Positions 21,009 to 54,859 are shown, counted from the first letter of the stretch. The stretch: DNA of 64,000 nucleotides from Deltaproteobacteria bacterium (GCA_029262455.1 JAJCZJ010000020.1:325078-389077); one strand, 5' to 3'. Notes: a model not told the origin generated them from the sequence alone. Translations and numbers: made by a program.

Positions 21009-21114
21009 GCGAAACGACCTTCCGCCGTCCAGCGCAGGATCGGCTCTTGCGAGCCGAACAATCGCCGAGGCCCCCGACGCACGTAACCCCTGGAAGCGTG
21101 AAATCATCCAGACT

Positions 21115-27472: not shown

Positions 27473-27497
27473 CTGCGGTTCAAATCCCTTGCTCGGC

Positions 27498-28907: not shown

Positions 28908-29405
28908 GTTTTCGGCGCCGGATTGAAGTGCGAAAACACATAGCGGCCGGAGAGGCAGATGTCAGCGACCGAGGACATCGGGGGTAGTGGGTCACTTTGA
29001 TCCTGAGCTCGGCGCAACCGGAGCGAAGTTGGGAGGGCACGGCACCGCCGAGCCTTTCCGGGGTGGAGTCTTGTCACAGCTACCACCCGCAGGAGCTATG
29101 CGCGGCTCGGCGGCGCCGCGCCCTCCCGGGACCCGGCTGCTCCCGTCCGCTTCGATCAAACCGACCCACCACCGGACATCGAACGCGGTACGCGTATTCT
29201 CCCTCGAAGGCCCGTTCCAAGGCGGCCTCATTCACACCCCGGTCGTAACGCAGCAAGGAGCCGTCTGCATACGCGCGCTGCGCTGTTTCCGGGTCTATGG
29301 AAATGCCACTCCGTTCCGCATTCATTTCCGTCATTTGCAGTTTCCGACACAAACCAATCCGCCCTCTTGCGGAGCCACCCAGGTCGCGCCAGGATCGCAT
29401 CCCTT

Positions 29406-30590
29406 ATGCCGAAAGAAGAGATCGAGGTCGAGGTTCGGGTTCGGCTGCGCGGAGGGCATTCCTACGATCTCACCCTATCATCCAACTCCGCTCTTCTGCG
29501 CGACTTGATCACGACGCTCGGCGGGTCGAGAAACTCGGTCCAGCCCCGACTCTTCCAGCTACCCCTCGACGGCGGCCAAACCTCCGCAACATTCGCCAGC
29601 GATCAGATATCAGCGATCGACACCCGTCCGCCACTCGACTGGAACACCATCACAACTGGTACGGAAGAGCGGTCCGCAAAAAGCCTCGGCGATGGTCCGC
29701 CTCTCGTCCTACGCGGCGCCCGCAACATTACACGCCAGCCATCCTACGAGGCAGCAGAGCGACGAGCGCGGCGGCTGATGGAACCGTTCGTGGCGCATCG
29801 ACAAGCCCGCCGTGCCGCACTGAAGAGCACTTGCGACGAGCTCGGCGGAAACACCTTCGTCGTCTCCCCCTTCAACCAAGGCTTCGTCCCGCTACTGCGC
29901 AACTGGGCCGCATCCTGTGATCGTTCCGGCATCGACTGCCGCGCCAGGACGGTACTGTTTCCGACCGACAACGGCGCCGACACTGCAGCACGCGAGCTCG
30001 GATTCGCAACCCTCTTCGACGGCGTCTCGTTTGACGGTGCCCCGCGCGACGCTATCAAAGTCTACGGGGACGCCCACTTTGCCGATTGTGTCTTCGCCAA
30101 GCTCGGCGCAGCAATCGACATGCTCGCTCTCGGCTACGACATCCTACTCCAGGATATGGATCTCGTCTGGTTCAAAGACCCGCTCCCCGGACTCAAAACT
30201 CGAGCGATGGCCGACGATCTGGACTTACAGTTCATGCGCGACATGAATCCGCGCTTCCAGCCGCTGTACTACAACTCCGGCTTCGTATTTATGCGCAACA
30301 ACGAATTCACCCGCCAAACCTGGAACACCATCTTCGACGCCTTTGCGGCGGTCGTGTTCTACCGCTCCGATCAAACCGTCGTGAACCAGGTCGTCGACTG
30401 CTACAAAGAGCGAGGATTGCGAGCCGCCCGTCTTCCAGATCGCTACGTAGATGGACAACTGCTGATCCGGGCCCAAACAAAACGCCGGCCTCTACCGCCA
30501 GATTCGATCGTGGCTCACGTCAACTGGACCGGAAACCTTGCCGAGAAGATCGCTCGGCTCAAAGCACTCGAACTGTGGTTCATCGACTGA
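29406..30590 (+). CDS. Unassigned N-terminal ~75-aa domain fused to a GT77/PF03407-like nucleotide-diphospho-sugar transferase
   Basis: ORF 29367..30590, ATG 29406. ILLQDMDLVWFKDPLPGL (DxD) and PLYYNSGFVFMRN are typical of Nucleotid_trans/GT77. N-terminus is described in the findings. Confidence 0.65.
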   Translation: MPKEEIEVEVRVRLRGGHSYDLTLSSNSALLRDLITTLGGSRNSVQPRLFQLPLDGGQTSATFASDQISAIDTRPPLDWNTITTGTEERSAKSLGDGPPLVLRGARNITRQPSYEAAERRARRLMEPFVAHRQARRAALKSTCDELGGNTFVVSPFNQGFVPLLRNWAASCDRSGIDCRARTVLFPTDNGADTAARELGFATLFDGVSFDGAPRDAIKVYGDAHFADCVFAKLGAAIDMLALGYDILLQDMDLVWFKDPLPGLKTRAMADDLDLQFMRDMNPRFQPLYYNSGFVFMRNNEFTRQTWNTIFDAFAAVVFYRSDQTVVNQVVDCYKERGLRAARLPDRYVDGQLLIRAQTKRRPLPPDSIVAHVNWTGNLAEKIARLKALELWFID

Positions 30591-30673
30591 TCGATGCAAA
30601 TCACTTGCCGTGTCACAAGTTTTCCCCTTTTAAGCTTGACAGGAAGTCAGCGAACGTCGAGACTGCCTCCCGG

Positions 30674-32611: not shown

Positions 32612-33976
32612 ATGTCGTCAGGAAACAGCGTAGAAACGCCGCCTACCAACTCTGGAGACTCCCCACGAGCACGGGGTGCGGCGGCTCGGCGGGTACGTCC
32701 GCGGCAGCGGGGCGGGCTCGAGACTTTCGAAGTACACAACGAAATCGTCGTGCTTCCCGGCGAGGGGGACCGCGTTTACGCGCTGAACGAGTCCGGTAAG
32801 GAGATCTTCGGCCTCTGCGACGGTCGCCACACCCTAGAGGCAATGGTCGACCAACTGGCGTCGAGGTACGACGCGCCTGACGTCGCGATCATGGGCGACG
32901 TGTCCGCAGCGATATTCGACCTCCACGGCCTCGGGCTGGTCGATATTCCTCCACCGGCTGACGCAGCTGCATCGATCGAGCCGCAGACCTCGGTCAAGGC
33001 ACGACCCAACGTGCGTTTCGTCTTCGGCATAGAGGACGTGCCCTATTTCCACTGGCAGCTTGCCATCCTCTTCGAGTCGCTCGTCGGCCAATTGCCCGAC
33101 GGTTGGGACGTCACCGTCGTCGTTTGCAACGACGAAGCACCGATTTCCGACGAGCTCATGAAGATCGTTTCCGAGTACGGTGTTCGCATCATGACCGGCA
33201 CCAGTCTCGCCGATCGCCACAGTCTCGACTTCGCCGGCGGCGGTGATCGCTACGTTCCGATGAACCGAGTCGAAGCACTCAGCGTCATTCGGCAAATCGT
33301 CGAACCCGAAGACGTCGTTTGCCTTCTGGACACCGACGTCTTCCTGTACGGCAACCTTCAAGAACAACTCTTCCCGACCGGCAACGCAATGGCCCGCAAC
33401 TGGATCATCTCCGAAGATCGGTACTTCGCGTTCTCGACCAACAACGAACGAGGACTGTCGCTCCCGAAGCTGCTCGAAGCCCTGGGGTGCGAGCAGGAGT
33501 TCAAACCCGGTGGCGTAGCGGTCTTCTTGACGGGAGAGACGATCCAACGCGAGCGCGTCATCCCCGACATTTTCCGTTTCCTTCAGGTTCTGTTCCTGCT
33601 CGGGAAAATCGTCGACGCACCAGCGCACGGCGTTTGGGTCGCCGAAATGGCATGCTTCGCAATGGCCATGTACCCCAACGAAATCGACTACGAGCTTCTC
33701 GACATCCCGCAATTCGCCGTCCAGGAGCAGCATGCTGAAGTCGCCCCCGACGGTTCGTTCTTCCACTACTACACCGACATCAACGACGGCGGGGGATCAA
33801 ATGGTCCGTTTTTCGAATCGCAGTGGCATAAACAGTTATTTCACCAGTCCAACATGCTCCTCGAAGACTTCGACAGCTTCAGAGTGAACGCCAAAGGCCG
33901 CCTCGAGCAGCGCTTCTTCGAAATCGCCGACAAGGCGAGAAAGCGCCTTTACGGCATCGAACGCACGGGCAAGTAG
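32612..33976 (+). CDS. PqqD-like domain fused to a GT95/GT96-like (HPAT / peptidyl-Ser galactosyltransferase-like) glycosyltransferase
   Basis: PqqD-like VYALNESGKEIFGLCDGRHTLEAMVDQLASRYD...AIFDLHGLGLV. GT part: FVFGIEDVPYFHWQLAILFESL, VVCLLDTDVFLYG, VWVAEMACFAMAMY. Confidence 0.6.
   Translation: MSSGNSVETPPTNSGDSPRARGAAARRVRPRQRGGLETFEVHNEIVVLPGEGDRVYALNESGKEIFGLCDGRHTLEAMVDQLASRYDAPDVAIMGDVSAAIFDLHGLGLVDIPPPADAAASIEPQTSVKARPNVRFVFGIEDVPYFHWQLAILFESLVGQLPDGWDVTVVVCNDEAPISDELMKIVSEYGVRIMTGTSLADRHSLDFAGGGDRYVPMNRVEALSVIRQIVEPEDVVCLLDTDVFLYGNLQEQLFPTGNAMARNWIISEDRYFAFSTNNERGLSLPKLLEALGCEQEFKPGGVAVFLTGETIQRERVIPDIFRFLQVLFLLGKIVDAPAHGVWVAEMACFAMAMYPNEIDYELLDIPQFAVQEQHAEVAPDGSFFHYYTDINDGGGSNGPFFESQWHKQLFHQSNMLLEDFDSFRVNAKGRLEQRFFEIADKARKRLYGIERTGK
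32717..32947 (+). other. PqqD-like (RRE-type) domain, copy 1, N-terminal
   Basis: aa 36-112 of ORF 32612; pattern L.LN..g..IW.LCDG..T..EI...L matches PF05402 by eye. Confidence 0.6.
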
Positions 33977-34640: not shown

Positions 34641-36644
34641 GTGAGACATCTACTCTATACAAACTACCAGTCCGGTCAGTCGGGTTTGAGCAACGGCATC
34701 ATGTCGATCGAGCTGGGCGTGGTCCTCGCGTTCCTGACGAATCGGTTTCTCCTGCTCGATGGCAACATCTCCCCGCCGGCCAATATCGTGTCGTACGGCG
34801 ATCGAGTCGACAACAGCCAGCCGAGCCGCGTCACCGACCTGATCGACCTACCGGTCGCCTGGAGTGAGCCAGGAAGCGTCGACGTGTCCAAGTTGCCGTT
34901 CCTCGAATTGAGCGACGACCATCTGGGGAGTGCCGCGTTCTATGTCCCCGGCACCGTCGACATCCGATCCGCCGACGCGGAAGCGTTCGCCAACGGCAGG
35001 ACAGTGTGGCTCAACGCTGGCGGCTCGCTCGACGAGATCCCGGTGCTGCGAGTGTCCGAGGATCACAGCAAAGACAATCTTCGATACAATCTCAACTACT
35101 ACTCGTACTTCTTCTACCTCGACGACGAAACGCGTCGCTCCGTCTACCGCATGCTCGAGCGGATGCAACCAAAGCAGGACCTAGGGGAGCTGGCGAAGCG
35201 CGTCGCCGGCGATCTCGGAGCATTCAACGCGGTGCACTTGCGACGCGGTGACTTCAAGGTGACCTATGGAGTCACCACCCTCGACCGTCAACCTTGGGAA
35301 GCAATCGAGGCGCTCGAGCATCACTTCAAACGCGACGACACTCTGGTCTTCGTGACCGACGAGCGCGACGACCCGTTCTTCGACGAGATCAAGAAGGTCT
35401 ATACGCATCACGTATTCATCGATCACCACATCCTCGACGACTACGAGAAGGACTTCGCCGCATTGCAGCACCGCGACAGCATCGCCTTGGCCTATCTTTC
35501 CCAGCTCGTGGCGGCCGAATCCGCCGACTTCATTGGCACCATGACCAGCACGTTCACCGCCATCATCCAGCGCTACCGCGGCAATCGCGGCAAGGCCGAG
35601 AGTTTCAAGTACCTTTGGAACGAGCTCCCGGACGACGGCGATCGTCTCGAACGCGGCCGTCATCCGGTTAGTGAGTGCGTCCCGATGGACCGCGGCATGA
35701 TGGTCGAAGAGTCGTCGGGTCCGTACTCATGGAATCGCTACAACAAGAGGATCGCCGCCAACTGGATGCGCGAATGGCCCGAAAGTTTTCTGACCCAAGA
35801 GAGCCTCGAAACCGGCAAATTGACGACCGGGGCCAGCCCCGTTGCCCGCCCCATCGTTCTGGTTCGTCCCGAAAGGACGAAAGTCGAGGTCGCGTTCGAC
35901 GGCTTGAGCATCATTCTAAACTCGCAAGTGCCTCGCGTTGCGACCAAGCTGAGCGAAGCCTTCGAATCACGCCAAGCTGCGAGTCCAGCGAACGTCATCG
36001 GGGAGTTCGAGGTTGCTGAAGAAGACGGCGACTTCCGTCTTCTGCAACGCGGCCAGGAAATCGCCACCGCAGCAAGCTACGAGGAGTTGGCGCGCACGTT
36101 AAAACTCCGCATGGTGCCGATCTTTGTCGGTGCGCGCCGCCGGCACGTGTGGCTGGAAGCTTTTTCCTTCCGTAGAGCAGGCCATGCGCTGGTTCTCGCC
36201 GGCGACATGGGTCCTCCATCGGACTGGCTGCCGGACGCCATGTGCTCGAACGGCTGGGAGCTGCTGTGGGACGAGATCGTCCCGATCCGCCTGGAAGACT
36301 GTACCGTCACACCGTTCGGCCGCACGACCTGGCCGAAGGGCGCAGCCCTGCGCATCGACCGTACGCCCTGTCGCGTCAGCGGCCTGATCGTCACCAGCCG
36401 ACAAGTCCAGCGCCGCGACACCTTGACCGTCTTGTCCCCAGCCACCGGGGTGGCGGAGTTGATCGGCCGCTGCGTCGACTTCCGCACCGACCGCAAGCGG
36501 GCGGTAGAACGCCTGTGCAAGCTGGTCGAGAAACGAACCGTAGGCAGACTGTCCTTCAGCCGCGCCGAGACCGCTGTCGATCTCCTCACGCGCCCCTTCC
36601 TCGACGCGGAGCGTGAGTCCGCCCACGGTACAAAGTCTGCATGA
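34641..36644 (+). CDS. O-fucosyltransferase-like (PF10250-type) GT domain fused to an HprK-related-kinase-like domain with a degenerate P-loop
   Basis: GLSNGIMSIELGVVLAFLTNRFLLL, FNAVHLRRGDF, ADFIGTMTSTFTAIIQRYRG. C-terminal half: VEVAFDGLSIILNS...HVWLEAFSFRRAGHALVLAGDMGPPSDWLPDAMCSNGWELLWDEIVPI. Confidence 0.55.
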   Translation: MRHLLYTNYQSGQSGLSNGIMSIELGVVLAFLTNRFLLLDGNISPPANIVSYGDRVDNSQPSRVTDLIDLPVAWSEPGSVDVSKLPFLELSDDHLGSAAFYVPGTVDIRSADAEAFANGRTVWLNAGGSLDEIPVLRVSEDHSKDNLRYNLNYYSYFFYLDDETRRSVYRMLERMQPKQDLGELAKRVAGDLGAFNAVHLRRGDFKVTYGVTTLDRQPWEAIEALEHHFKRDDTLVFVTDERDDPFFDEIKKVYTHHVFIDHHILDDYEKDFAALQHRDSIALAYLSQLVAAESADFIGTMTSTFTAIIQRYRGNRGKAESFKYLWNELPDDGDRLERGRHPVSECVPMDRGMMVEESSGPYSWNRYNKRIAANWMREWPESFLTQESLETGKLTTGASPVARPIVLVRPERTKVEVAFDGLSIILNSQVPRVATKLSEAFESRQAASPANVIGEFEVAEEDGDFRLLQRGQEIATAASYEELARTLKLRMVPIFVGARRRHVWLEAFSFRRAGHALVLAGDMGPPSDWLPDAMCSNGWELLWDEIVPIRLEDCTVTPFGRTTWPKGAALRIDRTPCRVSGLIVTSRQVQRRDTLTVLSPATGVAELIGRCVDFRTDRKRAVERLCKLVEKRTVGRLSFSRAETAVDLLTRPFLDAERESAHGTKSA

Positions 36645-37630
36645 CAGACCAAGCAACCGCACCGCGCCAGATCGACATCCGCATCTCCACCATCGGCGGG
36701 CACGAGTATCGGTTGAATCTCCGCGAAGACGCCGTCCATTTGCGCGACCTCTTTACTCGATTCGTCAACCGACCGGCGACTGGGGCTGTCCGAGCTCCTG
36801 AATTCATCCAACTGCCCCTCGACGGAGGCAACGCTTCCTGCACGATCGCCGTCGATCAGATTGTGTCGATCGTCACCACGCCACCAGTCGTCATCGAAGT
36901 GCAACAACCCGCCGTCGAGCCAAACGTAATTCCAGATGTGCCGGCAGTGGTCGCGCCACCCCAGATCCGGCGCGCACACTACACGGTGATCGACGACTTT
37001 CTCACCGTCGATGAGCACCGAGACATGCTGGCGTTGGCATTGAGCGAGAAGGACAGCTTCGAACCCGGTACGGTGCAGGGTGAACCGAGTCCACACCGAC
37101 GAAACAGCGTCATCATGAACTTCGCAGACTCGGCGCACGGAACACTGCTGACAAGTCGTCTGCTCGTTTGGTTTCCATTGATCGCAAAGGCGCTGAAGGA
37201 ACCACTGTTTCCGCTCAAGACGGTCGAGTCGCAACTGACCGCCGCCAACGACGGAGACTACTATAAGCCTCACCTCGATACCGACGGGAAGACCCCCGAT
37301 TTCCGGGTCATCGCGTGCGTCTACTATTTCTTCCGCGAGCCAAAAGGGTTCACGGGCGGCGACCTACGCCTCTATGATTCCATCGAAACAGGTGGCGAAA
37401 TCTGTCAGGCGGATTCCTTCCAAGACATTCGGCCGGCAAGCAATCGCTTGGTCGCATTCACCTGCGAGACCTTCCACGAGCTGCTCGCGACTCGCTGCCC
37501 GTCCAAGGATATCGAAGACAGTCGTTTTGCGGTGACCGCGTGGTTTCACCGCAGCGGCGCACCGGACCCCGACGCCAAGTTCGGTTGGGGACATTATCGT
37601 TGCGGCGAAGTTCCGGAGGCACTGCGGTGA
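36641..37630 (+). CDS. Unassigned N-terminal ~80-aa domain fused to a 2OG-Fe(II) oxygenase (PF13640-like)
   Basis: ATGA overlap with the upstream stop. YYKPHLDTDG (HxD), GGDLRLYD, NRLVAFTCETFHEL, RFAVTAWFH. Confidence 0.7.
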   Translation: MTDQATAPRQIDIRISTIGGHEYRLNLREDAVHLRDLFTRFVNRPATGAVRAPEFIQLPLDGGNASCTIAVDQIVSIVTTPPVVIEVQQPAVEPNVIPDVPAVVAPPQIRRAHYTVIDDFLTVDEHRDMLALALSEKDSFEPGTVQGEPSPHRRNSVIMNFADSAHGTLLTSRLLVWFPLIAKALKEPLFPLKTVESQLTAANDGDYYKPHLDTDGKTPDFRVIACVYYFFREPKGFTGGDLRLYDSIETGGEICQADSFQDIRPASNRLVAFTCETFHELLATRCPSKDIEDSRFAVTAWFHRSGAPDPDAKFGWGHYRCGEVPEALR

Positions 37631-37802: not shown

Positions 37803-38930
37803 ATGATCTTCACGGTTTTCGTCGCACCGGTCGAACCAACGCAACAGTGGCGTGCCGATCTCCTCGAATACTCATGGCGACGCATCAAGCAGAGCGGCGA
37901 ACTGATCCGGCTGGCGCCAACCGCCCCCGGACGCGCACCAGGTAGCAGAGGGAGAGTCGGGAGAACCGTCAAAACGTTCGACTGGAACCCCCACCCGTAC
38001 ACCCAGGACGTGTACGCCGGCTATCAGACAACCGCCGGCGTACTCGAGTGGTTGTTCAACGAGCCGGCCGAAGGAACAGTCCTTTTGCTGGATTCGAGCT
38101 GCATCCTACGCCACCCGGTTACAGCAGAGGTCGAACCAGGCCACGTGCGCGGGTCGTCGTGGCCGGAGATCCCACTTGGCACGGACGGCCCATTCGGCCT
38201 GCATGATGATCTGAAGTTTCTCGAATCCTATTGCGTCAACCGCAAGCTCCCCCTCGCTCCCGTGCGGATGCCGATTTTGATCCACACGGCGGACCTGCGA
38301 AAAATCGCGGCGCGCTGGCTCGAGCTTACGGCGTTGATTCGATCCCATGCCGTAGGCGTTCACGGAAAATACCTTCATGCAGATCGCGTCGCCTACACCG
38401 TCGCCGCCGCCGAATACCGCATCCTCCACACCCTTGACGACCTCGGCACTACGACGTCGGATACCGGCAAAGACGTTCCGATCGTCGACTACAGCACACC
38501 GATCAAGTCCAAACAGGGAGAGATCGTCTGGGACCGAAAGGTCTATCGACCATGGGAGGCAGTCTACACCGAAAATGCGCGCGCAGGCGCAGGCAGAGAC
38601 GTACTCGGGATCCTGAACGAGATGGTGACGCGCCGCGAATCGGGAGCCGAGCTTGCGGCAACACGTCCACAGCGGTGCTACGGGGTGCGGGAAGCACGAA
38701 TTCTCGACGACATTCATCTCGAAGTACCTGGGTGTGCCGACTTGATGTCGCTGAATCAATCCGCGGCTGCCATCTGGGAGCTGTGCAACGGCGAGAACAC
38801 ACTCGCCGAGATCGTCAGCGAGCTCGAGAGACAATTCGACGCGTCACGCGAAACCCTCATGACATCCGTCGAATCGACGGCGAGGGATTTGGAAAGCTCA
38901 GGTGCCATCGAGCTGGAGGAGCTGTTCTGA
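37803..38930 (+). CDS. GT95/GT96-like glycosyltransferase fused to a C-terminal PqqD-like domain
   Basis: IFTVFVAPVEPTQQWRADLLEYSWRRIKQSGELIRL, AGVLEWLFNEPAEGTVLLLDSSCILRHPV, ILIHTADLRKIAARWLELT, ADRVAYTVAAAEYRILH. C-terminus: LMSLNQSAAAIWELCNGENTLAEIVSELERQFD. Confidence 0.6.
   Translation: MIFTVFVAPVEPTQQWRADLLEYSWRRIKQSGELIRLAPTAPGRAPGSRGRVGRTVKTFDWNPHPYTQDVYAGYQTTAGVLEWLFNEPAEGTVLLLDSSCILRHPVTAEVEPGHVRGSSWPEIPLGTDGPFGLHDDLKFLESYCVNRKLPLAPVRMPILIHTADLRKIAARWLELTALIRSHAVGVHGKYLHADRVAYTVAAAEYRILHTLDDLGTTTSDTGKDVPIVDYSTPIKSKQGEIVWDRKVYRPWEAVYTENARAGAGRDVLGILNEMVTRRESGAELAATRPQRCYGVREARILDDIHLEVPGCADLMSLNQSAAAIWELCNGENTLAEIVSELERQFDASRETLMTSVESTARDLESSGAIELEELF
38679..38927 (+). other. PqqD-like domain, copy 2, C-terminal
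   Basis: Last ~82 aa of ORF 37803..38930. Confidence 0.6.
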
Positions 38931-40156
38931 TGGCATCCAAAGCAAAACCAAGCGCCAAAAAGTCCGTGCCGACCACAAAAACAAAGCACGCAGCAAAACG
39001 TGCCAAAGCCTCGGCCAAGAAAACAGCCAAAGCGCCGCCCGGAAAAGCCACGACAGCACGGGCGAAGAAGACCACCAAGACTCCGGCCTCCAAGAGCCCC
39101 AAAACCCGGACCCAAAGGACCCGGGCCCAAAAGCCCCGGGCCCGCAAAGCCGCGCTCAAAGTATCGCAAACGGTGTCGCCCAAAGGATCGCAAACGACTT
39201 CGAAGACGGAGCGAACGACCCCATCGCCTCGCGCAAAGTCGCGGCAGGCCACAAAACAACCCCAGATCTTCGTGTCGATCGCCTCCTACCGCGACCAGTT
39301 TCTTCACTTCACCATCGAGTCGGTGCTCAAACAGGCGACGTACCCAGAACGGTTGACCTTCGGCCTCTGCTGGCAAGCCGACGACACCGAGCAACTCGAT
39401 CAATACCTGCACGATCCGCGTTTCCGCATTCGCAAGTACCCGTACTACGCGAGCCTCGGCTACGGTTGGGCAAGAGCCGAGATCCAAAAACTATACGCCG
39501 GCGAAGAGTACCATCTACTGATCGATTCTCACACGTATCTCGCCAAGGGGTGGGACGAGAATCTGATCGCGCAACTCGAGAGCAAGCCGGGCGAGAAGCC
39601 GCTACTGACGACCAGCTCACCCCCTTTCACCTTCGACAATGACGGCAACGTCGTAATCCCGTGGCAAGGGACCGAACACGACGGCGTGCCGCTGATGAAG
39701 TGCGCACGAATCCAACCGGCAGGGTGGGTCGACATCCAGATGTCCAATGAGCGCAAGTCCACCAAACATCAAACCACCGGATTGGTGTGCTGTAACTTTG
39801 TCTTCACGCACGGGGCTTGGATCCGCGAAGTGCCCGAGGATCCGGCGATGATCAACGCCGGCCACGAGTCAGCCCTTTCGGTTCGTACCTTCACCCACGG
39901 ATACGACATCTACCTGCCCGACGAAATTCAAATCTGGCACCTCGACTACAACAACTACCCGAACGGTGAGCGCAACAAGGTATGGGAAGCAAAGTCCGAC
40001 AGTTGGCAGTCTGAGGGCACCGAGATCATGCTGCGGCGGCTGCAAGCGCTGTTCTACAACCGCGGCGACCGCGCCTCGCTCGGCCGCTACGGACTCGGTC
40101 GATCCCGCACCGTAGCCGACTGGGCGGAGATCACCGGACTCGACCTCAGTGACTGA
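38930..40156 (+). CDS. Lys/Ala/Thr/Pro-rich basic N-terminal extension (~111 aa) fused to a GT60 Gnt1-like (PF11397) glycosyltransferase
   Basis: Inner part of ORF 38552..40156. ATGA overlap with the upstream stop, GGAGGAG SD at 38915-38921. MASKAKPSAKKSVPTTKTKHAAKRAKASAKK..., then QIFVSIASYRDQFL, LLIDSHTY. Confidence 0.65.
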   Translation: MASKAKPSAKKSVPTTKTKHAAKRAKASAKKTAKAPPGKATTARAKKTTKTPASKSPKTRTQRTRAQKPRARKAALKVSQTVSPKGSQTTSKTERTTPSPRAKSRQATKQPQIFVSIASYRDQFLHFTIESVLKQATYPERLTFGLCWQADDTEQLDQYLHDPRFRIRKYPYYASLGYGWARAEIQKLYAGEEYHLLIDSHTYLAKGWDENLIAQLESKPGEKPLLTTSSPPFTFDNDGNVVIPWQGTEHDGVPLMKCARIQPAGWVDIQMSNERKSTKHQTTGLVCCNFVFTHGAWIREVPEDPAMINAGHESALSVRTFTHGYDIYLPDEIQIWHLDYNNYPNGERNKVWEAKSDSWQSEGTEIMLRRLQALFYNRGDRASLGRYGLGRSRTVADWAEITGLDLSD

Positions 40157-41942
40157 CGTCGACTCCGCACTACTGCCAATTCCCCAACCCGAGTGGCGTG
40201 CTTCTTTATCCGGCGACGGCGCGGCAGTTGATGTCCTGATTTTAAGCAAGGACCGCGCCTGCCAACTCGACGGACTGCTGCGCACGATGCGCGCGTTCCT
40301 GACCATCCCACACCGGAAATACGTACTGTACAAGACGTCTAATTTGGCGTTCGAGCGCGGCTACGACATGCTCCGCCGGTGGAATCCCGAGGTCGAGTTC
40401 ATCGACGAGGCGCAAACGTTTCGACAATGCTACCTCGACCTCGTGGCAAGGATCGCCGCCGGGCCTGGTCGCTACTGGATGCCGGTGATGGACGACATGA
40501 TCTTCACTCGCACGTTCACCGCACAGCCACTCATCGACCTCCTCGACACAGACGAGGACGTGCTGGCGATCTCTCTGCGCCTCGGCGAGAACATTACCTA
40601 TTGCTACACCCGAAACGCTCCAACCACACCTCCGGACTTCAGCAACGGACACCGTTGGGAATGGAGAACAGCCAGCCCAGGCTACTGGAACTATCCAATG
40701 TCCGTCGACGCCAACATCTACCGCACGGCGGAAATGGCCGAATACATCCCGACCCTCCAATTCGGCAAGGCTGAAGTCATCGAGGCACGCATGGCCGGGG
40801 TGCCCTTGAACCGCCCCCATATGCTGTGTGAACCGACCCCCAGCGTACTCAATCTCGCGATCAACCGCGTTCAACACACCTTCAAGAATCGGCACGGCAC
40901 AATCACGCCAGAAGCCCTGAACGGCGCTTTCCTCGCGGGTTTCGCGATGGATGTGCGCCCGTTGCTGGGTCGAACCTTCAACGCCTGTCACGTCGAGGTC
41001 GAGCTGTCCTTGGTCCCCGATGCGCGCGAGCGCCCCGGCGCAACGCCCCTCTCTTCGACCGGCTGGAAACCACAGCGAAACGGCGCCGTCGTCGTGACCG
41101 AGAGCCATGCTGTCGTGACGCTCAAGAGGAACGGAACGAAGCTCAAACTCAATCAGAGCGCCGAAGAGATCTGGAAACTGTGCGACGGAACACGAACGCC
41201 CGAGGACATCCAAAACGAGCTCGCGCAACATTTTGACGCAACCCCGCGCCAGCTTCACAGCGGCGTACGAAGCGCCCTGGCGAATTTCATCAATCACGGC
41301 CTTCTCCGTCAGGAACGCCCGGAAGGCGCATACCGCCGCATCGACCTGCGCCAGATTCCCTGCTTCGTGATCAATTGCGAAGCCGATGCTGAGAAGGACA
41401 CGTTGATGAAGCGTCAGCTCGCTGAGCTCGGGATACCGTACGAACGTGTACCCGGGATCGCCGCAAGCCCGGATTGGGTCGGCGTCGCGCTGTCGCACCT
41501 CAAAGTGCTTCGCCTGACCCGCTCGACGACACCCTTCCTGGTGCTCGAGGACGATTGCTTGTTCAACGACCGCTTCCAACCAGTGTGGCAAGTACCGGTC
41601 GAGGCCGACGCCCTGTATCTCGGCGTTTCCGAGTTCGGCCTCGAGACCCCCGGTCACTTCAGCTGGGGCCGCCGGCGCAAGAACCAATGGAGACCCTACG
41701 ACCGGTCCTTCCTCCGCATTTTCAACATGCTCGCACGCCATGCGGTCGTGTACCTTTCCAACGACTACTGCGAGCAAGTCATCCAATCGCAAATCGAAGC
41801 ACTGACGAATCGAAGTTTGCCGTACCCTGGGGACATCGGCTGCGCGATGCTGCAAGCATCGCACGTCGTCCTGACCCCGAACGAACCGATCTGCCGGCAA
41901 ACCGGTCGTGACTCGACCGTGCGTCCGTTGCCGGAGCTCTGA
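40149..41942 (+). CDS. Three-domain protein: GT-A-like domain, central PqqD-like domain, GT25-like domain
   Basis: VDVLILSKDRACQLDGLLRTM; central KLKLNQSAEEIWKLCDGTRTPEDIQNELAQHFD; C-terminal IPCFVINCEADAEKDTLMKRQLAELGIPYERVPGI...FLVLEDDC. Confidence 0.6.
   Translation: MTDVDSALLPIPQPEWRASLSGDGAAVDVLILSKDRACQLDGLLRTMRAFLTIPHRKYVLYKTSNLAFERGYDMLRRWNPEVEFIDEAQTFRQCYLDLVARIAAGPGRYWMPVMDDMIFTRTFTAQPLIDLLDTDEDVLAISLRLGENITYCYTRNAPTTPPDFSNGHRWEWRTASPGYWNYPMSVDANIYRTAEMAEYIPTLQFGKAEVIEARMAGVPLNRPHMLCEPTPSVLNLAINRVQHTFKNRHGTITPEALNGAFLAGFAMDVRPLLGRTFNACHVEVELSLVPDARERPGATPLSSTGWKPQRNGAVVVTESHAVVTLKRNGTKLKLNQSAEEIWKLCDGTRTPEDIQNELAQHFDATPRQLHSGVRSALANFINHGLLRQERPEGAYRRIDLRQIPCFVINCEADAEKDTLMKRQLAELGIPYERVPGIAASPDWVGVALSHLKVLRLTRSTTPFLVLEDDCLFNDRFQPVWQVPVEADALYLGVSEFGLETPGHFSWGRRRKNQWRPYDRSFLRIFNMLARHAVVYLSNDYCEQVIQSQIEALTNRSLPYPGDIGCAMLQASHVVLTPNEPICRQTGRDSTVRPLPEL
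41079..41315 (+). other. PqqD-like domain, copy 3, internal
   Basis: aa 311-389 of ORF 40149..41942. Confidence 0.6.
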
Positions 41943-41977: not shown

Positions 41978-44900
41978 GTGAAAAAGGGCACAATCCACGA
42001 TCTCTTCTCCCGCACCGCTTGCGTCGTGTCCGACAGGCACCGATTCATCTATTTGACGGCGCAAAACGCCACGTCTTCCCTGAAGGCCGAGCTGTCGAAC
42101 GAGCACTGCGGCGGCGTTGTCCTCGCCCGCGCACAGGTGGCTGATAAACTCTGGAACCAATACTTTACGTTCGCCTTCCTGCGCGACCCGCTGACGCGCT
42201 TTCTCTCCGCCTATCAGGAAGTGTCTCTGCACATGGAGCGTGACAAACTCGAACCGCGCCCTTTCGGCCGGATGCCCGACGGCCTCGATCGCTTTCAGGC
42301 ATTTCTCGCGGACGTCGAGCAGAACGGTCCGTGGAACGAGCACATTGCACTCCAGCTAGCCTTCGTCGAGCGCCGAAGAATCGACTTTTGGGGGCTCGTC
42401 GAAACGCTGCAAGACGACTTCCAACAAATCTACACCCGGCTGGGATTGGGGACCTGTCCCGTTCTGCCAAAACGCCGCTCTCGCAGCGGCCGTGAGGAAA
42501 AGGACGGCATCTCGCGCTTCGCCTTCCATCCGGAGGACCTCGATGCGACGACAATTGAGCGCATCTACGACCTCTACCGTGAGGACGTCTTGCTGATTCG
42601 AGCGGTTCGCCCCGACGCACCTGAAATGCAGCCGCACTCAACCCGTGCCGCACCGCCCCCCGGAATGGTGCAGGTGGCGATCGCCCTGGCCAACGGCGGC
42701 GAATACTCCCTCGAACTTCCGCCCGGCCAACCAGAGCTGGGCGCTCTGCAAGCTGTGGTATCACCACAACAATCCGATGGACGTTTTCTCGGCCCGCAAG
42801 TTCTGCAGGTTCCACTGCGTGGTGGCAATTCCGCGCTGACGTTTTCCACGCAGCACCTCGTTCGTCTCGAGCTACGCCCCCCCGACGCCCGAGAACTGCG
42901 CCGAATCGAGGCGCCGGCCACCGGCACGGGCAACTCCGGAGTGAATCTAATAAACGTCGGGAACAAGCGGCCGCCAACCGAGGACCCATCGAGCAATATC
43001 GACGAGGCGCATCTCGGTGGCTACATTCGTGCGGCCAATACACCGATTCTCCACAGCGCCGCAGGCCCACACGGGGACCGGGGAACCTGGAATCCGCTGC
43101 TGTGGCGTTGGGCAATCGAAGATCTCGACGTGCGATCAGTGATCGATATCGGATGCGGCGAGGGACACGCCGCCGGATTTTTCTCCGACGGCGGGTGTGA
43201 AGTGCTCGCGCTCGATGGCAGCCTTCAAGCGCGCTATTCCAGCGTTGTTCCAGATCGCCACGTCGTACACGACTTCGTCGAGGGACCTTTCGTCCCAGAG
43301 AAAAGCTTCGACATGGCCTGGACCTGCGAGTTCGTCGAACACGTCGAGGCGCGTTTTCTCCACAATTTCCTGGCTACGATCGCATCGAGCCGCAAGTACG
43401 TGATGATGACGTTCGCCAGCCCGACACAAACAGGCTGGCATCACGTCAATTGCCAAGAACAGGGTTACTGGGTCGATCAGTTGGGACGCCTCGGGTTTCG
43501 CCTGGACGACGATCTAACCGAGAGAGGCCGAGCCTTGGCTCACTCTCATTTTCGCGAACGTGGCCTGGTCTTCGTCCGGCACCATCGAAAAGGCGAGTCA
43601 TCGAAGTCCACAGAACCGTCGCTGCGCGCGACTGCCGAGAGTCACTGTCTCGACCCGCTGCCGGTCCAATCCATGCAGGTCGCACAGCGCGAGAGCGATG
43701 CCTTCTACCTGTTTGTCGACATCTTCGTGCATCCGACCGCACCGAGAATCGTGGCGATCTCACCACCCTATGGCGAAGACTGGAATCCTAACGTTGTCGG
43801 CATCGACTACGATGCCGTCGACCTTGTATTCGGTGACATACGCGTCCGCGGCCGCTGCCTGCGGCACCGTCTCGACTCCTGGGAGCCTTGCATGCTTCTC
43901 GAGTTCGAGGACGAAGACCTAACAGAGCGCATTCGGGCCAACGACGAGATCAACGTCACGATCGAGGCCGGCTCGCATTCGTCGTCCTTCGTCCTGACGA
44001 CCCGCCCAGCGCCAGCCTACGATGTCGCAATGAGCCTCGTCGTACGCAACGAAAACCGCTGGATCCGCACGTTTCTCGACTACTACCTCGACTGCGTCAA
44101 AGCCGACCACGTCTTCATCTACGACAACGGAACGTCGGAACAAGACCAGCTGCTTTCCATTCTTCACCCGTACCGAGAGCGCGGGCAAGTGACGTACATC
44201 CCGTGGGATTTTCGCTGGCGCAACCGCATCGACCGCAAGATGATCGGCCAACCGACACAGGAGGCTCACTCCCTTGCAAGATTCGCAAACACCGGGTGGA
44301 TCGGCTTTCTCGACATCGACGAGTTCCTGCGCTTGCCGCACAGCACCCTGCCACAATTTCTCGCTCGCTTCGCGTCCGCGGAGGTCGACGGACTCTCGTT
44401 CGGTATCCGGTGGTTTTCTTACGAGGGCCCGCTTGCACTCGATGAGATTACGAGTGTGCCACTGCAATTCCTCCACTCGCGCCGCAATGAGCTCGGCCGA
44501 AAACGGCAGAAGTTCTTCGTCAAAGGCGGCGGCTCGAAGTTTCTTCGCTTGCATTGGCTCGAAGACGGAGGTCGCGAACTGCCCATCGACGACACCGAGA
44601 TCTACTTTCACCACTACGATCAACGTCCCGGCCGTTTCGAAGAAGGAAAGCAAATCGGAGGAGCGCGCGACGAATACATGCTGCGCTTCGCCGACCAGCT
44701 CTCGCGCCCCGAGCGGCACAGAGCCCCTCTAACCGAGAGAGGATGGATCACCCACATCAACTCTTCGATCGAACGCGCCGAACGCGACACCTCCAAACTC
44801 ACCCCGGAAGTCCTCGCCGTCGACGGCATGTGCGGGCGCTACACCCGTCACTTCTACAACAACCTCTGCAGCTTCGGAGGATGCCGCTACCTCGAGATCG

Positions 44901-45385
44901 GCAGCTATCACGGGGCCAGCACCTGCGCGGCAATCTTCGGCAACGACGTATCCGCCGTGTGCATCGACAATTGGACACAGTTTCACGGCAAGCGAAGCCG
45001 CTTCGAGGATGCCCTACGACGCTTCCGAGGAGATCGCTCGGTCCGAGTCATCGAGCAAAACTGCTTCGAAGTAGACGCCTCAAGCCTCGGCCCATTCGAC
45101 ATCTATCTCTACGATGGCGACCACAGCCAGCAGAACCAGTACCGAGCCTTGCAGCACTTCGTTCAGACGCTGGCCAAGCTCGCCGTAGTCGTCATCGACG
45201 ACTGGAATCGTCGGCATATCCGTCGGGGGACACAGGACGCGATTCGGGACCTCGAACTCGATGTAATCTTCGACCGAGAGATCCTACTGCCAACCGACCA
45301 GACGGCGGATGAAAACCGTGACGCTGGAGCGCGAACTTGGTGGAACGGACTCTACATCATGCTCGTTCGCAGTAGAACGCAGTAG
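41978..45385 (+). CDS. 1135-aa five-module enzyme: sulfotransferase, shared ~75-aa domain, class I SAM-MTase, GT92/Glyco_tranf_2_4-like, second SAM-MTase (Methyltransf_24-like)
   Basis: FTFAFLRDPLTRFLSAY; MVQVAIALANGGEYSLELPP...LQVPLRGGNSALTF; VIDIGCGEGHAAGF; SLVVRNENRWIRTFLDYYL...FIYDNGTS...FLDIDEFL; YLEIGSYHGAST...IYLYDGDHS...VVIDDWN. GTG start has a weak SD. Confidence 0.65.
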   Translation: MKKGTIHDLFSRTACVVSDRHRFIYLTAQNATSSLKAELSNEHCGGVVLARAQVADKLWNQYFTFAFLRDPLTRFLSAYQEVSLHMERDKLEPRPFGRMPDGLDRFQAFLADVEQNGPWNEHIALQLAFVERRRIDFWGLVETLQDDFQQIYTRLGLGTCPVLPKRRSRSGREEKDGISRFAFHPEDLDATTIERIYDLYREDVLLIRAVRPDAPEMQPHSTRAAPPPGMVQVAIALANGGEYSLELPPGQPELGALQAVVSPQQSDGRFLGPQVLQVPLRGGNSALTFSTQHLVRLELRPPDARELRRIEAPATGTGNSGVNLINVGNKRPPTEDPSSNIDEAHLGGYIRAANTPILHSAAGPHGDRGTWNPLLWRWAIEDLDVRSVIDIGCGEGHAAGFFSDGGCEVLALDGSLQARYSSVVPDRHVVHDFVEGPFVPEKSFDMAWTCEFVEHVEARFLHNFLATIASSRKYVMMTFASPTQTGWHHVNCQEQGYWVDQLGRLGFRLDDDLTERGRALAHSHFRERGLVFVRHHRKGESSKSTEPSLRATAESHCLDPLPVQSMQVAQRESDAFYLFVDIFVHPTAPRIVAISPPYGEDWNPNVVGIDYDAVDLVFGDIRVRGRCLRHRLDSWEPCMLLEFEDEDLTERIRANDEINVTIEAGSHSSSFVLTTRPAPAYDVAMSLVVRNENRWIRTFLDYYLDCVKADHVFIYDNGTSEQDQLLSILHPYRERGQVTYIPWDFRWRNRIDRKMIGQPTQEAHSLARFANTGWIGFLDIDEFLRLPHSTLPQFLARFASAEVDGLSFGIRWFSYEGPLALDEITSVPLQFLHSRRNELGRKRQKFFVKGGGSKFLRLHWLEDGGRELPIDDTEIYFHHYDQRPGRFEEGKQIGGARDEYMLRFADQLSRPERHRAPLTERGWITHINSSIERAERDTSKLTPEVLAVDGMCGRYTRHFYNNLCSFGGCRYLEIGSYHGASTCAAIFGNDVSAVCIDNWTQFHGKRSRFEDALRRFRGDRSVRVIEQNCFEVDASSLGPFDIYLYDGDHSQQNQYRALQHFVQTLAKLAVVVIDDWNRRHIRRGTQDAIRDLELDVIFDREILLPTDQTADENRDAGARTWWNGLYIMLVRSRTQ

Positions 45386-46048: not shown

Positions 46049-46744
46049 TCATCCCACCCCGCAGACCTCCCGACCCGTGGCTTCACGATAGTAGGACACA
46101 TCCTCGGCGCAAATGCGCAAAGCCAGTTCTCGCGTCTCCCCATCATAGAAAAGCTCCGGAACCGGCATCCCGTGCCGGCGAAGCCAGCCCGGGGAACGAT
46201 CTGTCGCGCGCTCTCGAATCGTCACGTCCTGCGGCGAAGGATTCTCGTGCAGGACCGGCGCGGAAACCGAAACTCTCTCGTTTAAGCTCGCCAGCCCCCG
46301 CGAGAGATCTTCCACCGCAACGACTTCGTCGAAGTCTATCTGATGCGTGTTTCGGACCTGCGGCACCAAATGGTGCTGGGGTTCGATCCCGCGGGTCTGA
46401 ACATGCTGCAAGGTGTAGAGGAACTTGCGAAAGCTCTTGTCCCGCAGCGAGAGCTTCCGGTCATCGTCGGCAAAGCACCACAACGTTTCATCGCGCACGA
46501 CCCACAAGGTGTAGAACCCGACGAGTCGGCGAAGCGGATCGCGCACAAAGAAGACCTTCCAATAGTCACGACAGCGGTCGATGTCGCCGTGCCAAATCAG
46601 GAAAGCGTCAAGGTCTTCGACCGGTTGCTTCGTCTTCTCCTCAATCGCTGCCTTGCACCACGATCGGATGCTGTTCGAACCACACTTGGGACTATAGACG
46701 GCAAGTACTTCGAGTGGATCCGCGGCTAGGAAGAAGTGGGCCAT
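46049..46744 (-). CDS. Sulfotransferase (Sulfotransfer_2-like)
   Basis: MAHFFLAADPLEVLAVYSPKCGSNSIRSW (5'-PSB-like), KVFFVRDPLRRLVGFY (3'-PB-like). The frame stays open upstream through the heptamer repeat to GTG 46900, so an N-terminal HESPVTS-repeat extension cannot be excluded. Confidence 0.65.
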   Translation of the reverse strand: MAHFFLAADPLEVLAVYSPKCGSNSIRSWCKAAIEEKTKQPVEDLDAFLIWHGDIDRCRDYWKVFFVRDPLRRLVGFYTLWVVRDETLWCFADDDRKLSLRDKSFRKFLYTLQHVQTRGIEPQHHLVPQVRNTHQIDFDEVVAVEDLSRGLASLNERVSVSAPVLHENPSPQDVTIRERATDRSPGWLRRHGMPVPELFYDGETRELALRICAEDVSYYREATGREVCGVG

Positions 46745-46759
46745 GGGGATTCTATGTGT

Positions 46760-46878
46760 GTGATTGGTGACTGGTGATTCGTGACTGGTGACTGGTGATT
46801 CGTGACTGGTGACTGGTGATTCGTGACTGGTGACTGGTGATTCGTGACTGGTGACTGGTGACTGGTGACTGGTGATTG
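46760..46878. repeat. 17 tandem heptamers GTGAYTS, with a 21-bp super-repeat GTGACTGGTGACTGGTGATTC
   Basis: Counted by hand from the sequence: 119 bp = 17 x 7, lying between the GT60-like stop (46893) and the sulfotransferase ATG (46744). Confidence 0.9.
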
Positions 46879-46892
46879 GTTGGGCAAAAGTT

Positions 46893-47900
46893 CTACACAC
46901 CGGCGCCGGCCTGGTACTCTTCGAAAGTGACGCAGCTCTCCCAGTCGGACGGCGACCGGATTGTCACTGGGTCGGGGTTCGCGCCACTAAACGCATCCGG
47001 ATGCGCGCGTTTGGCTCGGAAGTCAAAGCCCGAAAAAATCTCGTAGTCCCGCAAGGTCCGCACCCGACCGAAACCGTACGGTCCGGGCAGCGGTGATTCA
47101 TAGCTCGAGAGCAGCTGTTCCAAACGGGCAAACGCCTCGCGGTTGCGGCGCTCGACGACGTCTTCCCCCTGCTCCCAATGGCGCCGCGGCGGCCCGTCGT
47201 TGTGCTGCATGTGCCATGCCACGACTTCCGTTGGAAGAAAGAAGTCGTACCCCCAGGTGTACGAACGAATGGTCACATTCAGCTCTTCGCCCCAATAGTA
47301 TTGTCCGGGATCCTGCGGCACCTCGACATTCCAGATGCCGCGCGAGAACGCGAAGTTGCCGTTGACAAACCGTGTACGCCCCGGCTTCTTGACGTTGGGG
47401 GCTCCAAAGTCGAACCACGGCGCCCAATGGTCCGACGCGCTCCAGCCGCTCACCTTGGTCGTCGGCACACCCATTTCAGTACGACGCTGCGGCACACCAT
47501 CCTCGTCGTACCAGAATAGGGGAGCATTCATGCTGAGAACGGGTTTCTCACTGGGGAGAGCCTCCAGCATCTCGATCAGCCGCGCGTCCCAGTCGGGCTC
47601 GAGCTTCATATGGGAATCGATCTGCAGAGTGTAGGGTTCACCTCGCCACAGAGACTGCGCAATATTACGCGCCCAGGGGCCGCCCTGGCTTGCCGCAATC
47701 GTCGTATCCACAAACCGAAACCGCGGATCTCGGCGAAAATCCTCCAACGGCACCGGCGCTTTTGGGTCACGCTGCCAGCAAATTCCGAAACGCAGCGAAT
47801 CTGGAGCACTTGCCGTTTCGATCGCGTCACGCAAGGTGCGCGGCAACTCGGGGTCCGTGTACGACGCGATCGCGACGAAGATCTGAGGGTGGGAAGCCAC
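46893..47900 (-). CDS. GT60 Gnt1-like (PF11397) glycosyltransferase, paralog of 38930..40156 without the basic extension
   Basis: MASHPQIFVAIASYTDPEL, LQIDSHMKL, and the C-terminal GFGRVRTLRDYEIFSGFD parallels GLGRSRTVADWAEITGLD. Confidence 0.65.
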   Translation of the reverse strand: MASHPQIFVAIASYTDPELPRTLRDAIETASAPDSLRFGICWQRDPKAPVPLEDFRRDPRFRFVDTTIAASQGGPWARNIAQSLWRGEPYTLQIDSHMKLEPDWDARLIEMLEALPSEKPVLSMNAPLFWYDEDGVPQRRTEMGVPTTKVSGWSASDHWAPWFDFGAPNVKKPGRTRFVNGNFAFSRGIWNVEVPQDPGQYYWGEELNVTIRSYTWGYDFFLPTEVVAWHMQHNDGPPRRHWEQGEDVVERRNREAFARLEQLLSSYESPLPGPYGFGRVRTLRDYEIFSGFDFRAKRAHPDAFSGANPDPVTIRSPSDWESCVTFEEYQAGAGV

Positions 47901-51316: not shown

Positions 51317-51498
51317 TGCCCGCTCAAATCCTCCGATACCAGCCGACTGCTACGGAGCAAAGCAAGTAGTGCGCTTGGCCCGTTTTGCGAGACAGGAGCC
51401 TGCTATTCGGGGGCCGGGGGTGGATACGGCTGGGTGCGCCGAACTCGTGGGCATCACCGGGTGGGCGCTCGCACCGTCGGCCTGCTATCGTGTCGGTC

Positions 51499-52260: not shown

Positions 52261-52266
52261 CACGAC

Positions 52267-54837: not shown

Positions 54838-54859
54838 GGAATCCCCCGTGGTCTTCGCC

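Follow-up and report, generated by a model that had tools for sequence, protein, structure and literature searches.

The stretch of DNA analysed here (64,000 nt; hereafter, the window) comes from Deltaproteobacteria bacterium (GCA_029262455.1 JAJCZJ010000020.1:325078-389077) and carries a gene, termed J, whose product joins six modules in a single polypeptide: a sulfotransferase (ST), a small domain with paralogues elsewhere in the window (the shared domain), a methyltransferase (MT1), a β-rich module, a GT92 glycosyltransferase and a second methyltransferase (MT2). J stands at the end of an operon of conserved gene order (Table 1). Its neighbours encode further glycosyltransferases, a prolyl-4-hydroxylase (P4H)-like 2-oxoglutarate (2OG) oxygenase, a second sulfotransferase, three proteins with PqqD/RRE domains (RRE, RiPP recognition element; RiPP, a peptide made by the ribosome and modified after translation) and two leader-bearing proteins with xxPT repeats. 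In Table 1, SAM stands for S-adenosylmethionine, HMM for hidden Markov model, AF2 for AlphaFold2 and pLDDT for its per-residue confidence score, the predicted local distance difference test.

Table 1. Gene J, its modules and associated genes in the window
Feature	Position	Strand	Basis
Gene J, six-module tailoring enzyme	41978..45385	+	1135 aa, intact open reading frame, GTG start
J module 1, Sulfotransfer_2 (aa 1-214)	41978..42619	+	Pfam E 2.4e-14
J module 2, shared domain (aa 229-303)	42662..42886	+	paralogues in window; no known family
J module 3, MT1, class I SAM methyltransferase (aa 340-535)	42995..43582	+	Pfam Methyltransf_23/11
J module 4, β-rich, no known family (aa ~562-677)	43661..44008	+	AF2 strands, pLDDT about 60-87
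J module 5, GT92 GT-A glycosyltransferase (aa ~683-912)	44024..44713	+	Pfam E 2.8e-10
J module 6, MT2, Methyltransf_24-type (aa ~915-1135)	44720..45382	+	Pfam E 1.7e-11
Gene A, shared domain + GT77-like nucleotide-diphospho-sugar transferase	29367..30590	+	Pfam Nucleotid_trans E 4.2e-15
Gene S, substrate candidate 1, 168 aa	31963..32469	+	leader HMM E 3.6e-38
Gene C, 454 aa, N-terminal PqqD/RRE	32612..33976	+	Pfam PqqD E 7.6e-14; NCBIfam
Gene E, 667 aa, O-FucT-like	34641..36644	+	weak Pfam O-FucT E 1.3e-5
Gene F, N-terminal shared domain + P4H-like 2OG-Fe(II) oxygenase	36641..37630	+	Pfam 2OG-FeII_Oxy_3 E 3.9e-15
Gene G, 375 aa, C-terminal PqqD/RRE, conserved	37803..38930	+	Pfam PqqD E 1.9e-13
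Gene H, GT60 'GlcNAc' transferase	38930..40156	+	Pfam PF11397 E 5e-44
Gene I, 597 aa, PqqD/RRE (aa 330-386) + GT25-like region	40149..41942	+	Pfam PqqD E 3.6e-11; NCBIfam PqqD-type matches
Gene K, substrate candidate 2, 159 aa	45413..45892	-	leader HMM E 2.6e-13
Gene L, standalone Sulfotransfer_2	46049..46744	-	Pfam E 4.6e-8
Gene M, second GT60 'GlcNAc' transferase	46893..47900	-	Pfam PF11397 E 1.1e-43

Architecture and conservation of gene J

The reading frame of J is free of internal stops, and an identical 1135-aa protein (P0001) is held in the public protein collection. Two full-length homologues, P0002 (1134 aa, 60% identity) and P0003 (1143 aa, 54%), have the identical architecture, which shows this long fusion to be genuine and not an artefact of assembly. 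A sequence-only reading of the same DNA had described a multi-module enzyme of this length, and it was right about the frame, the order of the modules and their families: each of the four catalytic modules scores above its Pfam gathering threshold, and every motif string it quoted lies where it had placed it. It had counted five modules, however, where we find six, the additional one being the β-rich module that precedes GT92. An NCBIfam scan returned no model covering either J or the candidate substrates. In the full-length AF2 model (mean pLDDT 65), boundaries fall at aa 6-214 for ST, aa 229-303 for the shared domain, aa 535 for the end of MT1, aa 562-677 for the β-rich module, aa ~683-912 for GT92 and aa ~915-1135 for MT2. 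Neither a signal peptide nor a transmembrane (TM) segment is predicted in J, and the same holds for all the enzymes of the cluster.

Motif conservation was read from an alignment of 12 family members, each motif being scored wherever its module is present. MT1 (Methyltransf_23 at aa 382-473, 36.8 bits against a cut-off of 27; Methyltransf_11, 25.8 against 21.2 bits) carries the family signatures EGHLGGY, HGDxxTWxPxLWxW, DxGCGEGH, CEFVEHV and GWHHVNC, which are invariant in 12/12 sequences, as are its glycine-rich motif I (DIGCGEGH) and the acidic D413-G-S after strand 2. The first two of these signatures sit within aa 304-366, a stretch that is nevertheless of low model confidence. GT92 (Glyco_transf_92 at aa 688-880, 40.7 bits against 23, spanning profile positions 10-211 of 249) keeps the motifs VVRNENRW, YDNGT and DxDE (D779-I-D781-E) that are conserved in nine of nine sequences. 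The β-rich module accompanies GT92 across loci, being retained in all nine GT92-bearing homologues; it has no Pfam match, and the combined β-rich and GT92 region found no sequence match in the PDB. MT2 (Methyltransf_24 at aa 972-1076, 45.4 bits against 26.3), in which LEIGSxxGAS, IDNW, YDGxH and IDDW are intact (conserved in 7/7), is modelled with a pLDDT of about 88. Foldseek relates it to the O-methyltransferases Rv0187, MycF and MeT1 (E about 2e-7), a likeness to cation-dependent O-methyltransferases that extends to the sugar O-methyltransferases MycF and MeT1, and PDB sequence searches with MT1 and MT2 yielded weak, generic methyltransferase matches only. Two homologues, P0006 and P0007, lack MT2 (alignment columns ~2420-2600). 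The C-terminus of P0007 is rich in Arg, Ser and Pro, much like an out-of-frame translation, and this suggests a frameshift in the metagenomic contig rather than a true loss of the module.

Is the fused sulfotransferase functional in this genome? By its own terms, the sequence-only reading would have been refuted if the SAM- and 3'-phosphoadenosine-5'-phosphosulfate (PAPS)-binding residues were absent on alignment, and here the outcome is divided: the SAM motifs are intact, whereas the P-loop lysine of ST is replaced by glutamine (Gln29; codon CAA, nt 42062-42064). Pfam Sulfotransfer_2 matches aa 10-206 at 54.5 bits (cut-off 22), and the 3'-phosphate-binding motif FLRDPLTRFLSAY (RDPxxRxxS type) is intact, with R69, D70, P71 and R74 invariant in 11/11 sequences and His122 invariant as well. 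The P-loop itself reads TAQNATSS in J and T(T)AKNA(T/S)ST in its relatives; that of J is also one residue shorter. At this place, SPKC(G/A)xx is found in the standalone sulfotransferases that belong to this type of cluster, and all ten relatives aligned have the lysine. When a profile of these sulfotransferases was compared with the solved sulfotransferase 3rnl, the P-loop aligned with AAKCGTSS and the RDP motif with LRNPVDRAFSAY (marginal E 0.17), and Gln29 lies in a strand-loop-helix of the AF2 model; a direct PDB sequence search with the ST module of J gave no match. In characterised sulfotransferases the P-loop lysine makes contact with the 5'-phosphosulfate, and activity falls severely when it is mutated. 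Because of this replacement, the fused ST module is probably impaired in the present genome, and sulfation here is then probably carried out by gene L, which has canonical motifs on alignment (P-loop SPKCGSNS, FFVRDPLRRLV and QHHLVPQ). This second sulfotransferase had already been noted in the sequence-only reading, and Pfam and the alignment confirm it; likewise, as that reading had it, there are no PAPS-synthesis genes in the window, no such domain having turned up among the ~50 open reading frames (ORFs) scanned.

The original proposal was that J alone transfers a glycosyl residue, methylates twice and sulfates, which would require the fused ST module to be fully active despite Gln29. The remainder of the module is well conserved (53% identity to its counterpart in locus L002, a degree similar to that of the other modules), with the 3'-phosphate-binding motif and His122 in place, and since CAA and AAA differ by a single A/C exchange, a sequencing error is conceivable. 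Yet the lysine is kept in all ten relatives, which span both sulfotransferase families of this cluster type, the same P-loop carries the one-residue deletion, mutants of this lysine in characterised enzymes are severely affected, and the canonical enzyme L is encoded 700 bp away. We thus consider full activity of the fused module unlikely, though far from negligible.

Module 2 of J, the shared domain (~80 aa), had been reported by the sequence-only reading and left uninterpreted. Its existence is borne out by tblastn and HMM comparisons, which show it to be paralogous to the N-termini of the products of genes F and A. Modelled alone, it reaches a pLDDT of 84 and adopts a β-β-α-β-β-β order; it has neither a significant Pfam match nor a PDB sequence match. 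That it might be a divergent PqqD/RRE domain was ruled out, hhalign assigning a probability of 0.2% against the cluster's own PqqD domains. The domain is rare, with 120 representative clusters in 1.84e9 proteins (exhaustive profile search), and its 22 copies in the 81 loci fetched occur in cluster-bearing loci only. Fusion partners (n=65) comprise 2OG oxygenases (37), MT1-type methyltransferases (10), PqqD (7), GT92 (5), Sulfotransfer_2 (4), Methyltransf_24 (4), FUT8-like (4), O-FucT (3), GT77 (2) and GT25 (2) domains, which are exactly the enzyme classes of the cluster described here. Locus L009, from Acidobacteriota, has a PqqD domain immediately before MT1, in the very slot that the shared domain takes in J, and this substitution suggests a recruiting role. 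The shared domain, specific to this cluster type, is hence probably a docking module that recruits its enzymes to the substrate or to an enzyme complex; its distribution and fusion patterns fit such a function without proving it.

The conserved operon and its candidate substrates

The gene order S-C-D-E-F-G-H-(I)-J recurs in 13 of the fetched loci, which belong to at least four phyla. Carriers include Candidatus Binatia, Acidobacteriota, Nitrospirales and several Gammaproteobacteria (Halieaceae, Lysobacterales, Congregibacter, Halioglobus and the named strain Elongatibacter sediminis CH-27), and more divergent versions of the cluster are found in L084 and L085. Within flanks of ±10 kb, all cluster loci share MT1 but no other module of J; about half of them have GT92 and MT2. 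Sulfotransferases recur in about half of the loci, too, and sulfation is accordingly a recurrent, non-universal feature of the cluster type, with three sulfotransferase genes in L084, for example. The L084 locus (GCA_942492505.1, 4267-20984) holds a PT-repeat gene, a shared-domain 2OG oxygenase, three GT60 genes and a GT61 gene, next to two Sulfotransfer_2 genes, a Sulfotransfer_4-GT77 fusion and a faint ScmC-like match.

The sequence-only reading had missed the context of glycan attachment in which J is embedded, namely the PqqD/RRE proteins, the P4H-like oxygenase, the GT60 enzymes and the two leader-bearing xxPT-repeat genes. All three PqqD domains (in C, G and I) exceed the Pfam cut-off, and J itself has no PqqD match in Pfam. 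Gene C is conserved directly after the substrate gene S. Fusions of protein I to J-type enzymes exist in P0009, L004-L006, L012 and L085, which suggests that I and J work together where they are separate, as in the window. Gene F has a prolyl 4-hydroxylase, 6t8m, as its nearest PDB entry (E 4e-5), and sequence searches of the PDB with the GT60 enzymes gave no match. Gene H, whose ATG overlaps the stop codon of G (TGATG), is 80% identical to its L002 orthologue from aa 233 of the ORF. At its N-terminus (38930-39235) lies a highly basic extension of ~100 aa, rich in Lys, Ala and Thr (MASKAKPSAKKSVPTTKTKHAAKRAK...), that is absent from the L002 orthologue and contains a 15-bp repeat (39096-39143). 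Gene E is present in all cluster loci; its C-terminal stretch (aa 500-570) weakly resembles HprK-related kinase A (TIGR04352, E 1.3e-6, far below cut-off), a family associated with PqqD-containing peptide-modification cassettes. Gene D (205 aa) has no family match, and its best PDB sequence hit is insignificant (E 0.32).

Downstream of J, a minus-strand arm M-L-K, starting with gene M, is likewise found in L002 and L003. Genes J and K converge, with their stop codons 27 nt apart, and no terminator or promoter was found in the space between them. Between the stop of M (46893) and the start of L (46744) lies a tandem repeat of the heptanucleotide GTGACTG (17.3 copies, or 5.8 copies of a 21-bp unit; 46760-46880) that homologous loci lack; by analogy with simple-sequence phase variation, this array could modulate how L and K are expressed. 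The conserved core yielded no dedicated leader protease. Full-text literature searches retrieved no description of this cluster, and fusions of RREs to glycosyltransferases have been noted only as uncharacterised bioinformatic matches (PMC7470986, PMC12710340).

What would these enzymes act on? S and K are the candidate substrates. A leader profile built from the N-termini of S in the window and its L001 counterpart recovered the family in the window and ten further loci, or eleven if a weaker match in L019 is counted (12 loci altogether); its members adjoin the cluster every time, and S-type genes always sit just upstream of gene C. Members open with a helix of the consensus M(S)D(S)DKTKxxLIEELExLRxQ, followed by a linker and, 40-60 aa from the N-terminus, the strongly conserved segment (I/L)(S/T)RRxALxxxWVAPVILSVP, with AxA ~20 residues later in many of them. 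Next come PT dipeptides at period 4 (xxPT tetrads such as FPTSFPT, APTTAPTT, SPTVSPTV or EPTRSPTQ). PT is 3-5x commoner than composition predicts, while TP is rare. C-termini consist of a membrane segment and an acidic tail in some substrates, and of IPVELSEFEVS in others. Protein S has the leader helix MSDSKKTRKQLIEELEQLRGQ, the motif VSRRTALKVAWTAPVILAIP and then 20 PT dipeptides (7.1 expected), mostly at period 4. Protein K, with orthologues at the equivalent position in L002 and L003, has the leader helix, the motif ISRRSALKIAWVTPVILSVP, a P/T-rich region, a C-terminal TM segment (a TM-like window) and an acidic tail. The conserved substrate N-terminus would function as a leader, and the RR-hydrophobic-AxA segment behind it may serve as a signal peptide. 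WVAPVILSVP, however, hardly varies between phyla, a constancy that exceeds the needs of a signal peptide and suggests that this stretch is a recognition element as well.

A predicted role in building protein-linked glycans

Together, this leads us to propose, with a probability of roughly 0.6, that J works in the cytoplasm at a late stage, placing a hexose and one or two O-methyl groups on an O-glycan that the xxPT repeats of S and K carry, with sulfation as an accessory step probably performed by L, and with J held on its substrate by the shared domain and protein I. In such a pathway, proteins C, G and I would bind the N-terminal leader of the substrate through their PqqD/RRE domains. The P4H-like oxygenase F would hydroxylate proline, and/or the GT60 enzymes H and M would attach N-acetylglucosamine (GlcNAc) to hydroxyproline (Hyp) or Thr of the PT dipeptides, and the transferases E, I and A would extend the glycan. 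J would then add a hexose through GT92 and O-methylate sugars through MT1 and MT2; lacking an RRE of its own, it would be held in place by the shared domain and through an association with protein I, which does bear one. Sulfation would occur within the pathway, and the product might finally be exported, possibly by means of the RR-hydrophobic-AxA segment. From the observed domain families, conserved motifs, synteny, substrate family and fusion patterns, we infer the acceptor, the sugars and their attachment residue (Thr or Hyp), the order of the steps, the docking and the export. Of the activities that the sequence-only reading had combined in J, glycan extension and two methylations appear reasonable, and so does sulfation at the level of the pathway; J's own ST, with Gln29 for the P-loop lysine, is the part that fits poorly.

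Several observations weigh against this proposal. The product is predicted from genes, all of the evidence being computational. Three YfhO genes and a GT2 gene are present in the window, and a polysaccharide or lipid-linked route in the region is therefore possible. Most homologues of MT1 are standalone proteins (~200 aa) whose genes lie in unrelated contexts, and the family as such does not fix specificity. The GT92 module is poorly modelled (pLDDT <50 for aa 740-912), and Gln29 might still allow some sulfotransfer. With cores of 50-200 aa, the substrates are large for a RiPP. Lastly, the RR-hydrophobic-AxA layout resembles a twin-arginine translocation (Tat) signal, but Pfam TAT_signal scores only 7.3-7.4 bits against a cut-off of 22.7.

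An alternative implied by the sequence-only reading is that J tailors a free or lipid-linked polysaccharide, such as a lipopolysaccharide O-antigen, a capsule or an exopolysaccharide, and that its PqqD and PT-repeat neighbours are incidental. GT92, Methyltransf_24 and Sulfotransfer_2 enzymes do generally act on glycans, bacterial polysaccharides can carry terminal sugars that are methylated or sulfated, J is devoid of an RRE, and besides the YfhO and GT2 genes the window encodes a membrane-bound O-acyltransferase (MBOAT) and an epimerase. The YfhO and GT2 genes, however, are missing from all the other loci fetched, whereas the genes for PqqD, P4H, GT60 and PT-repeat substrates accompany those of J-type enzymes in a fixed order in different phyla, and protein I is physically fused to such enzymes in at least six genomes. 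In the conserved core we saw no Wzx/Wzy, no ABC exporter and no initiating phosphoglycosyltransferase. Judging from this gene content, the neighbours of J do not make up a polysaccharide locus; the alternative strikes us as very unlikely, and the glycan acted on by J is probably protein-linked rather than free.

Equally unlikely, though possible for MT1 or ST, is the idea that some modules of J act on the peptide, with MT1 methylating side chains or termini, for example, or ST O-sulfating Thr, Hyp or Tyr: methyltransferases acting on peptides are frequent in RiPP pathways, no tailoring module other than MT1 is universal to the cluster, and its weak PDB matches include the cypemycin N-terminal methyltransferase (E 0.0099), but MT1 is repeatedly fused to glycosyltransferases in other genomes (GT14, O-FucT, GT2, GT92), Pfam Sulfotransfer_2 contains mainly carbohydrate sulfotransferases, and MT2 matches cation-dependent O-methyltransferases, sugar O-methyltransferases among them. 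Outside the cluster, MT1 is joined to GT14 ('Branch'), O-FucT and GT2, as well as to an MT24 module (fusion to PqqD is found too), and it is these glycosyltransferase fusions, together with the resemblance of MT2 to sugar O-methyltransferases, that argue for glycan rather than peptide chemistry in the proposed protein-glycan pathway.

The assemblage is reminiscent of the Skp1 pathway of protists, whose enzymes are soluble and cytoplasmic, successive ones often being fused in pairs, possibly for processive processing (PMC8724618). GT60 enzymes start both the Hyp-linked glycan of Skp1 and mucin-type O-glycans on Thr/Ser/Pro-rich repeats (PMC8724618). To P4H1/PhyA, Gnt1 (GT60), PgtA and AgtA (GT77) of that pathway correspond, in the window, the P4H-like F, the GT60 enzymes H and M, the O-FucT-like E and the GT77-like A. 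The substrates here, however, are leader-bearing xxPT-repeat proteins and not Skp1 with its single proline, and the window system is bacterial, is likely to have an export signal and adds PqqD/RRE domains, the shared domain and methyltransferase, sulfotransferase and GT92 modules. Membership in a Skp1-type pathway was ruled out on this count: both enzyme types are present, but the adjoining substrates are PT-repeat proteins. The polypeptide α-GlcNAc-transferases of Dictyostelium and Trypanosoma cruzi offer another parallel, given the two GT60 genes beside PT-repeat substrates, although those enzymes, unlike the present ones, are Golgi-resident and operate without leader recognition.

RRE-dependent RiPPs, glycocins included, are comparable in that a precursor combines a conserved N-terminal leader with a modified core and several enzymes bear PqqD domains. 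As expected of an RRE-dependent pathway, S, K and their homologues pair a conserved leader with a variable core beside the modifying enzymes. They differ from RiPPs and glycocins in having, instead of a short peptide, a core of repeats 50-200 aa long, and in that the glycan would be built in many steps by about ten enzymes; J, unlike RRE-dependent RiPP enzymes, has no RRE and carries a different small domain. Known GT92 galactosyltransferases include GALT-1 of C. elegans, which adds galactose to fucose, and GALS1 of plants. The corresponding module of J matches the Pfam family above cut-off and keeps the DxD motif, and the cluster also encodes fucosyltransferase-like modules. In contrast to GALT-1 and GALS1, however, it is bacterial and soluble, belongs to a six-module protein, is preceded by an extra β-rich domain and has an activity that is predicted. 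Finally, rhizobial Nod factors are decorated by a fucosyltransferase (NodZ), a methyltransferase (NoeI), sulfotransferases (NoeE, NodH) and an acetyltransferase (NolL). The same fucosylation, O-methylation, sulfation and O-acylation could be expected of the FucT-like, methyltransferase, sulfotransferase and MBOAT genes found here, but the Nod-factor enzymes are separate proteins, and they act on a lipo-chitooligosaccharide instead of a protein, without leader recognition.

Taken one by one, the catalytic domains are thus of known families, and the novelty lies in how they are combined, in the shared domain and in the surrounding pathway. Tentatively, and at clearly less than even odds, we suggest that the cluster represents an undescribed cytoplasmic assembly line of bacteria, in which recognition of the leader by PqqD/RRE domains and by a new docking domain, the shared domain, steers P4H-like, GT60, FucT-like, GT77, GT92, methyl- and sulfotransferase modules in building methylated, sulfated mucin-type O-glycans on xxPT-repeat proteins, in which a Tat-like export signal doubles as the end of the leader, and in which J is the terminal multi-enzyme; it would be a prokaryotic relative of the eukaryotic Skp1/mucin P4H/GT60 machinery. 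If true, this would join RiPP-style, leader/RRE-guided peptide modification with multi-step protein O-glycosylation, two hitherto separate fields. Bacteria of several phyla would then make mucin- or extensin-like glycoproteins with homologues of the protist Skp1/mucin initiation machinery, which would bear on the origin of that machinery. The rare, unannotated shared domain would be a candidate for a second class of substrate-recruiting module, and the naturally fused GT-MT-MT(-ST) enzymes might be harnessed for glyco-engineering. The lysine-to-glutamine change, in turn, allows a prediction as to which sulfotransferase, the fused or the standalone one, works in this genome. With Elongatibacter sediminis CH-27 (locus L012), a named strain carries the cluster, so the idea is open to experiment.

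Other genes in the window

Downstream of the cluster, a multihaem cytochrome c (536 aa) and a cytochrome b (348 aa) are encoded next to each other on the minus strand (53227-55906) and are unrelated to J. The interval 49229-53163, after the epimerase gene, encodes a tetratricopeptide repeat (TPR) protein (695 aa), a class I methyltransferase (291 aa) and an NAD(P)-binding, NmrA-like protein (298 aa), which are without counterpart in the other cluster loci within the flanks fetched. An ORF at 30086-31942, with a 40% match in L002, has a C-terminal half in which a Cys-rich region, weakly matching disintegrins, precedes a PTPVPTPTPTPVP linker and a membrane segment at the C-terminus. A leader like that of S and K is lacking; the actual signal peptide looks to be a hydrophobic stretch inside the ORF, near aa 222.

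At 16733-24116, three YfhO-family membrane proteins and a GT2 protein are encoded in a row, an extracytoplasmic glycosylation set of the polyprenol-phosphate-sugar type. Since the other loci lack them, membership of the YfhO and GT2 genes in the J system is not supported. The MBOAT gene (27498..28907, minus strand) adjoins that of an 876-aa protein without Pfam match (24941..27571, minus strand). Both also lie beside the cluster in L004 and L005, while in L031 the MBOAT is accompanied by just the N-terminal half of the 876-aa protein, and in L001 the 876-aa protein occurs without the MBOAT. This context suggests that the exported product may be O-acylated.

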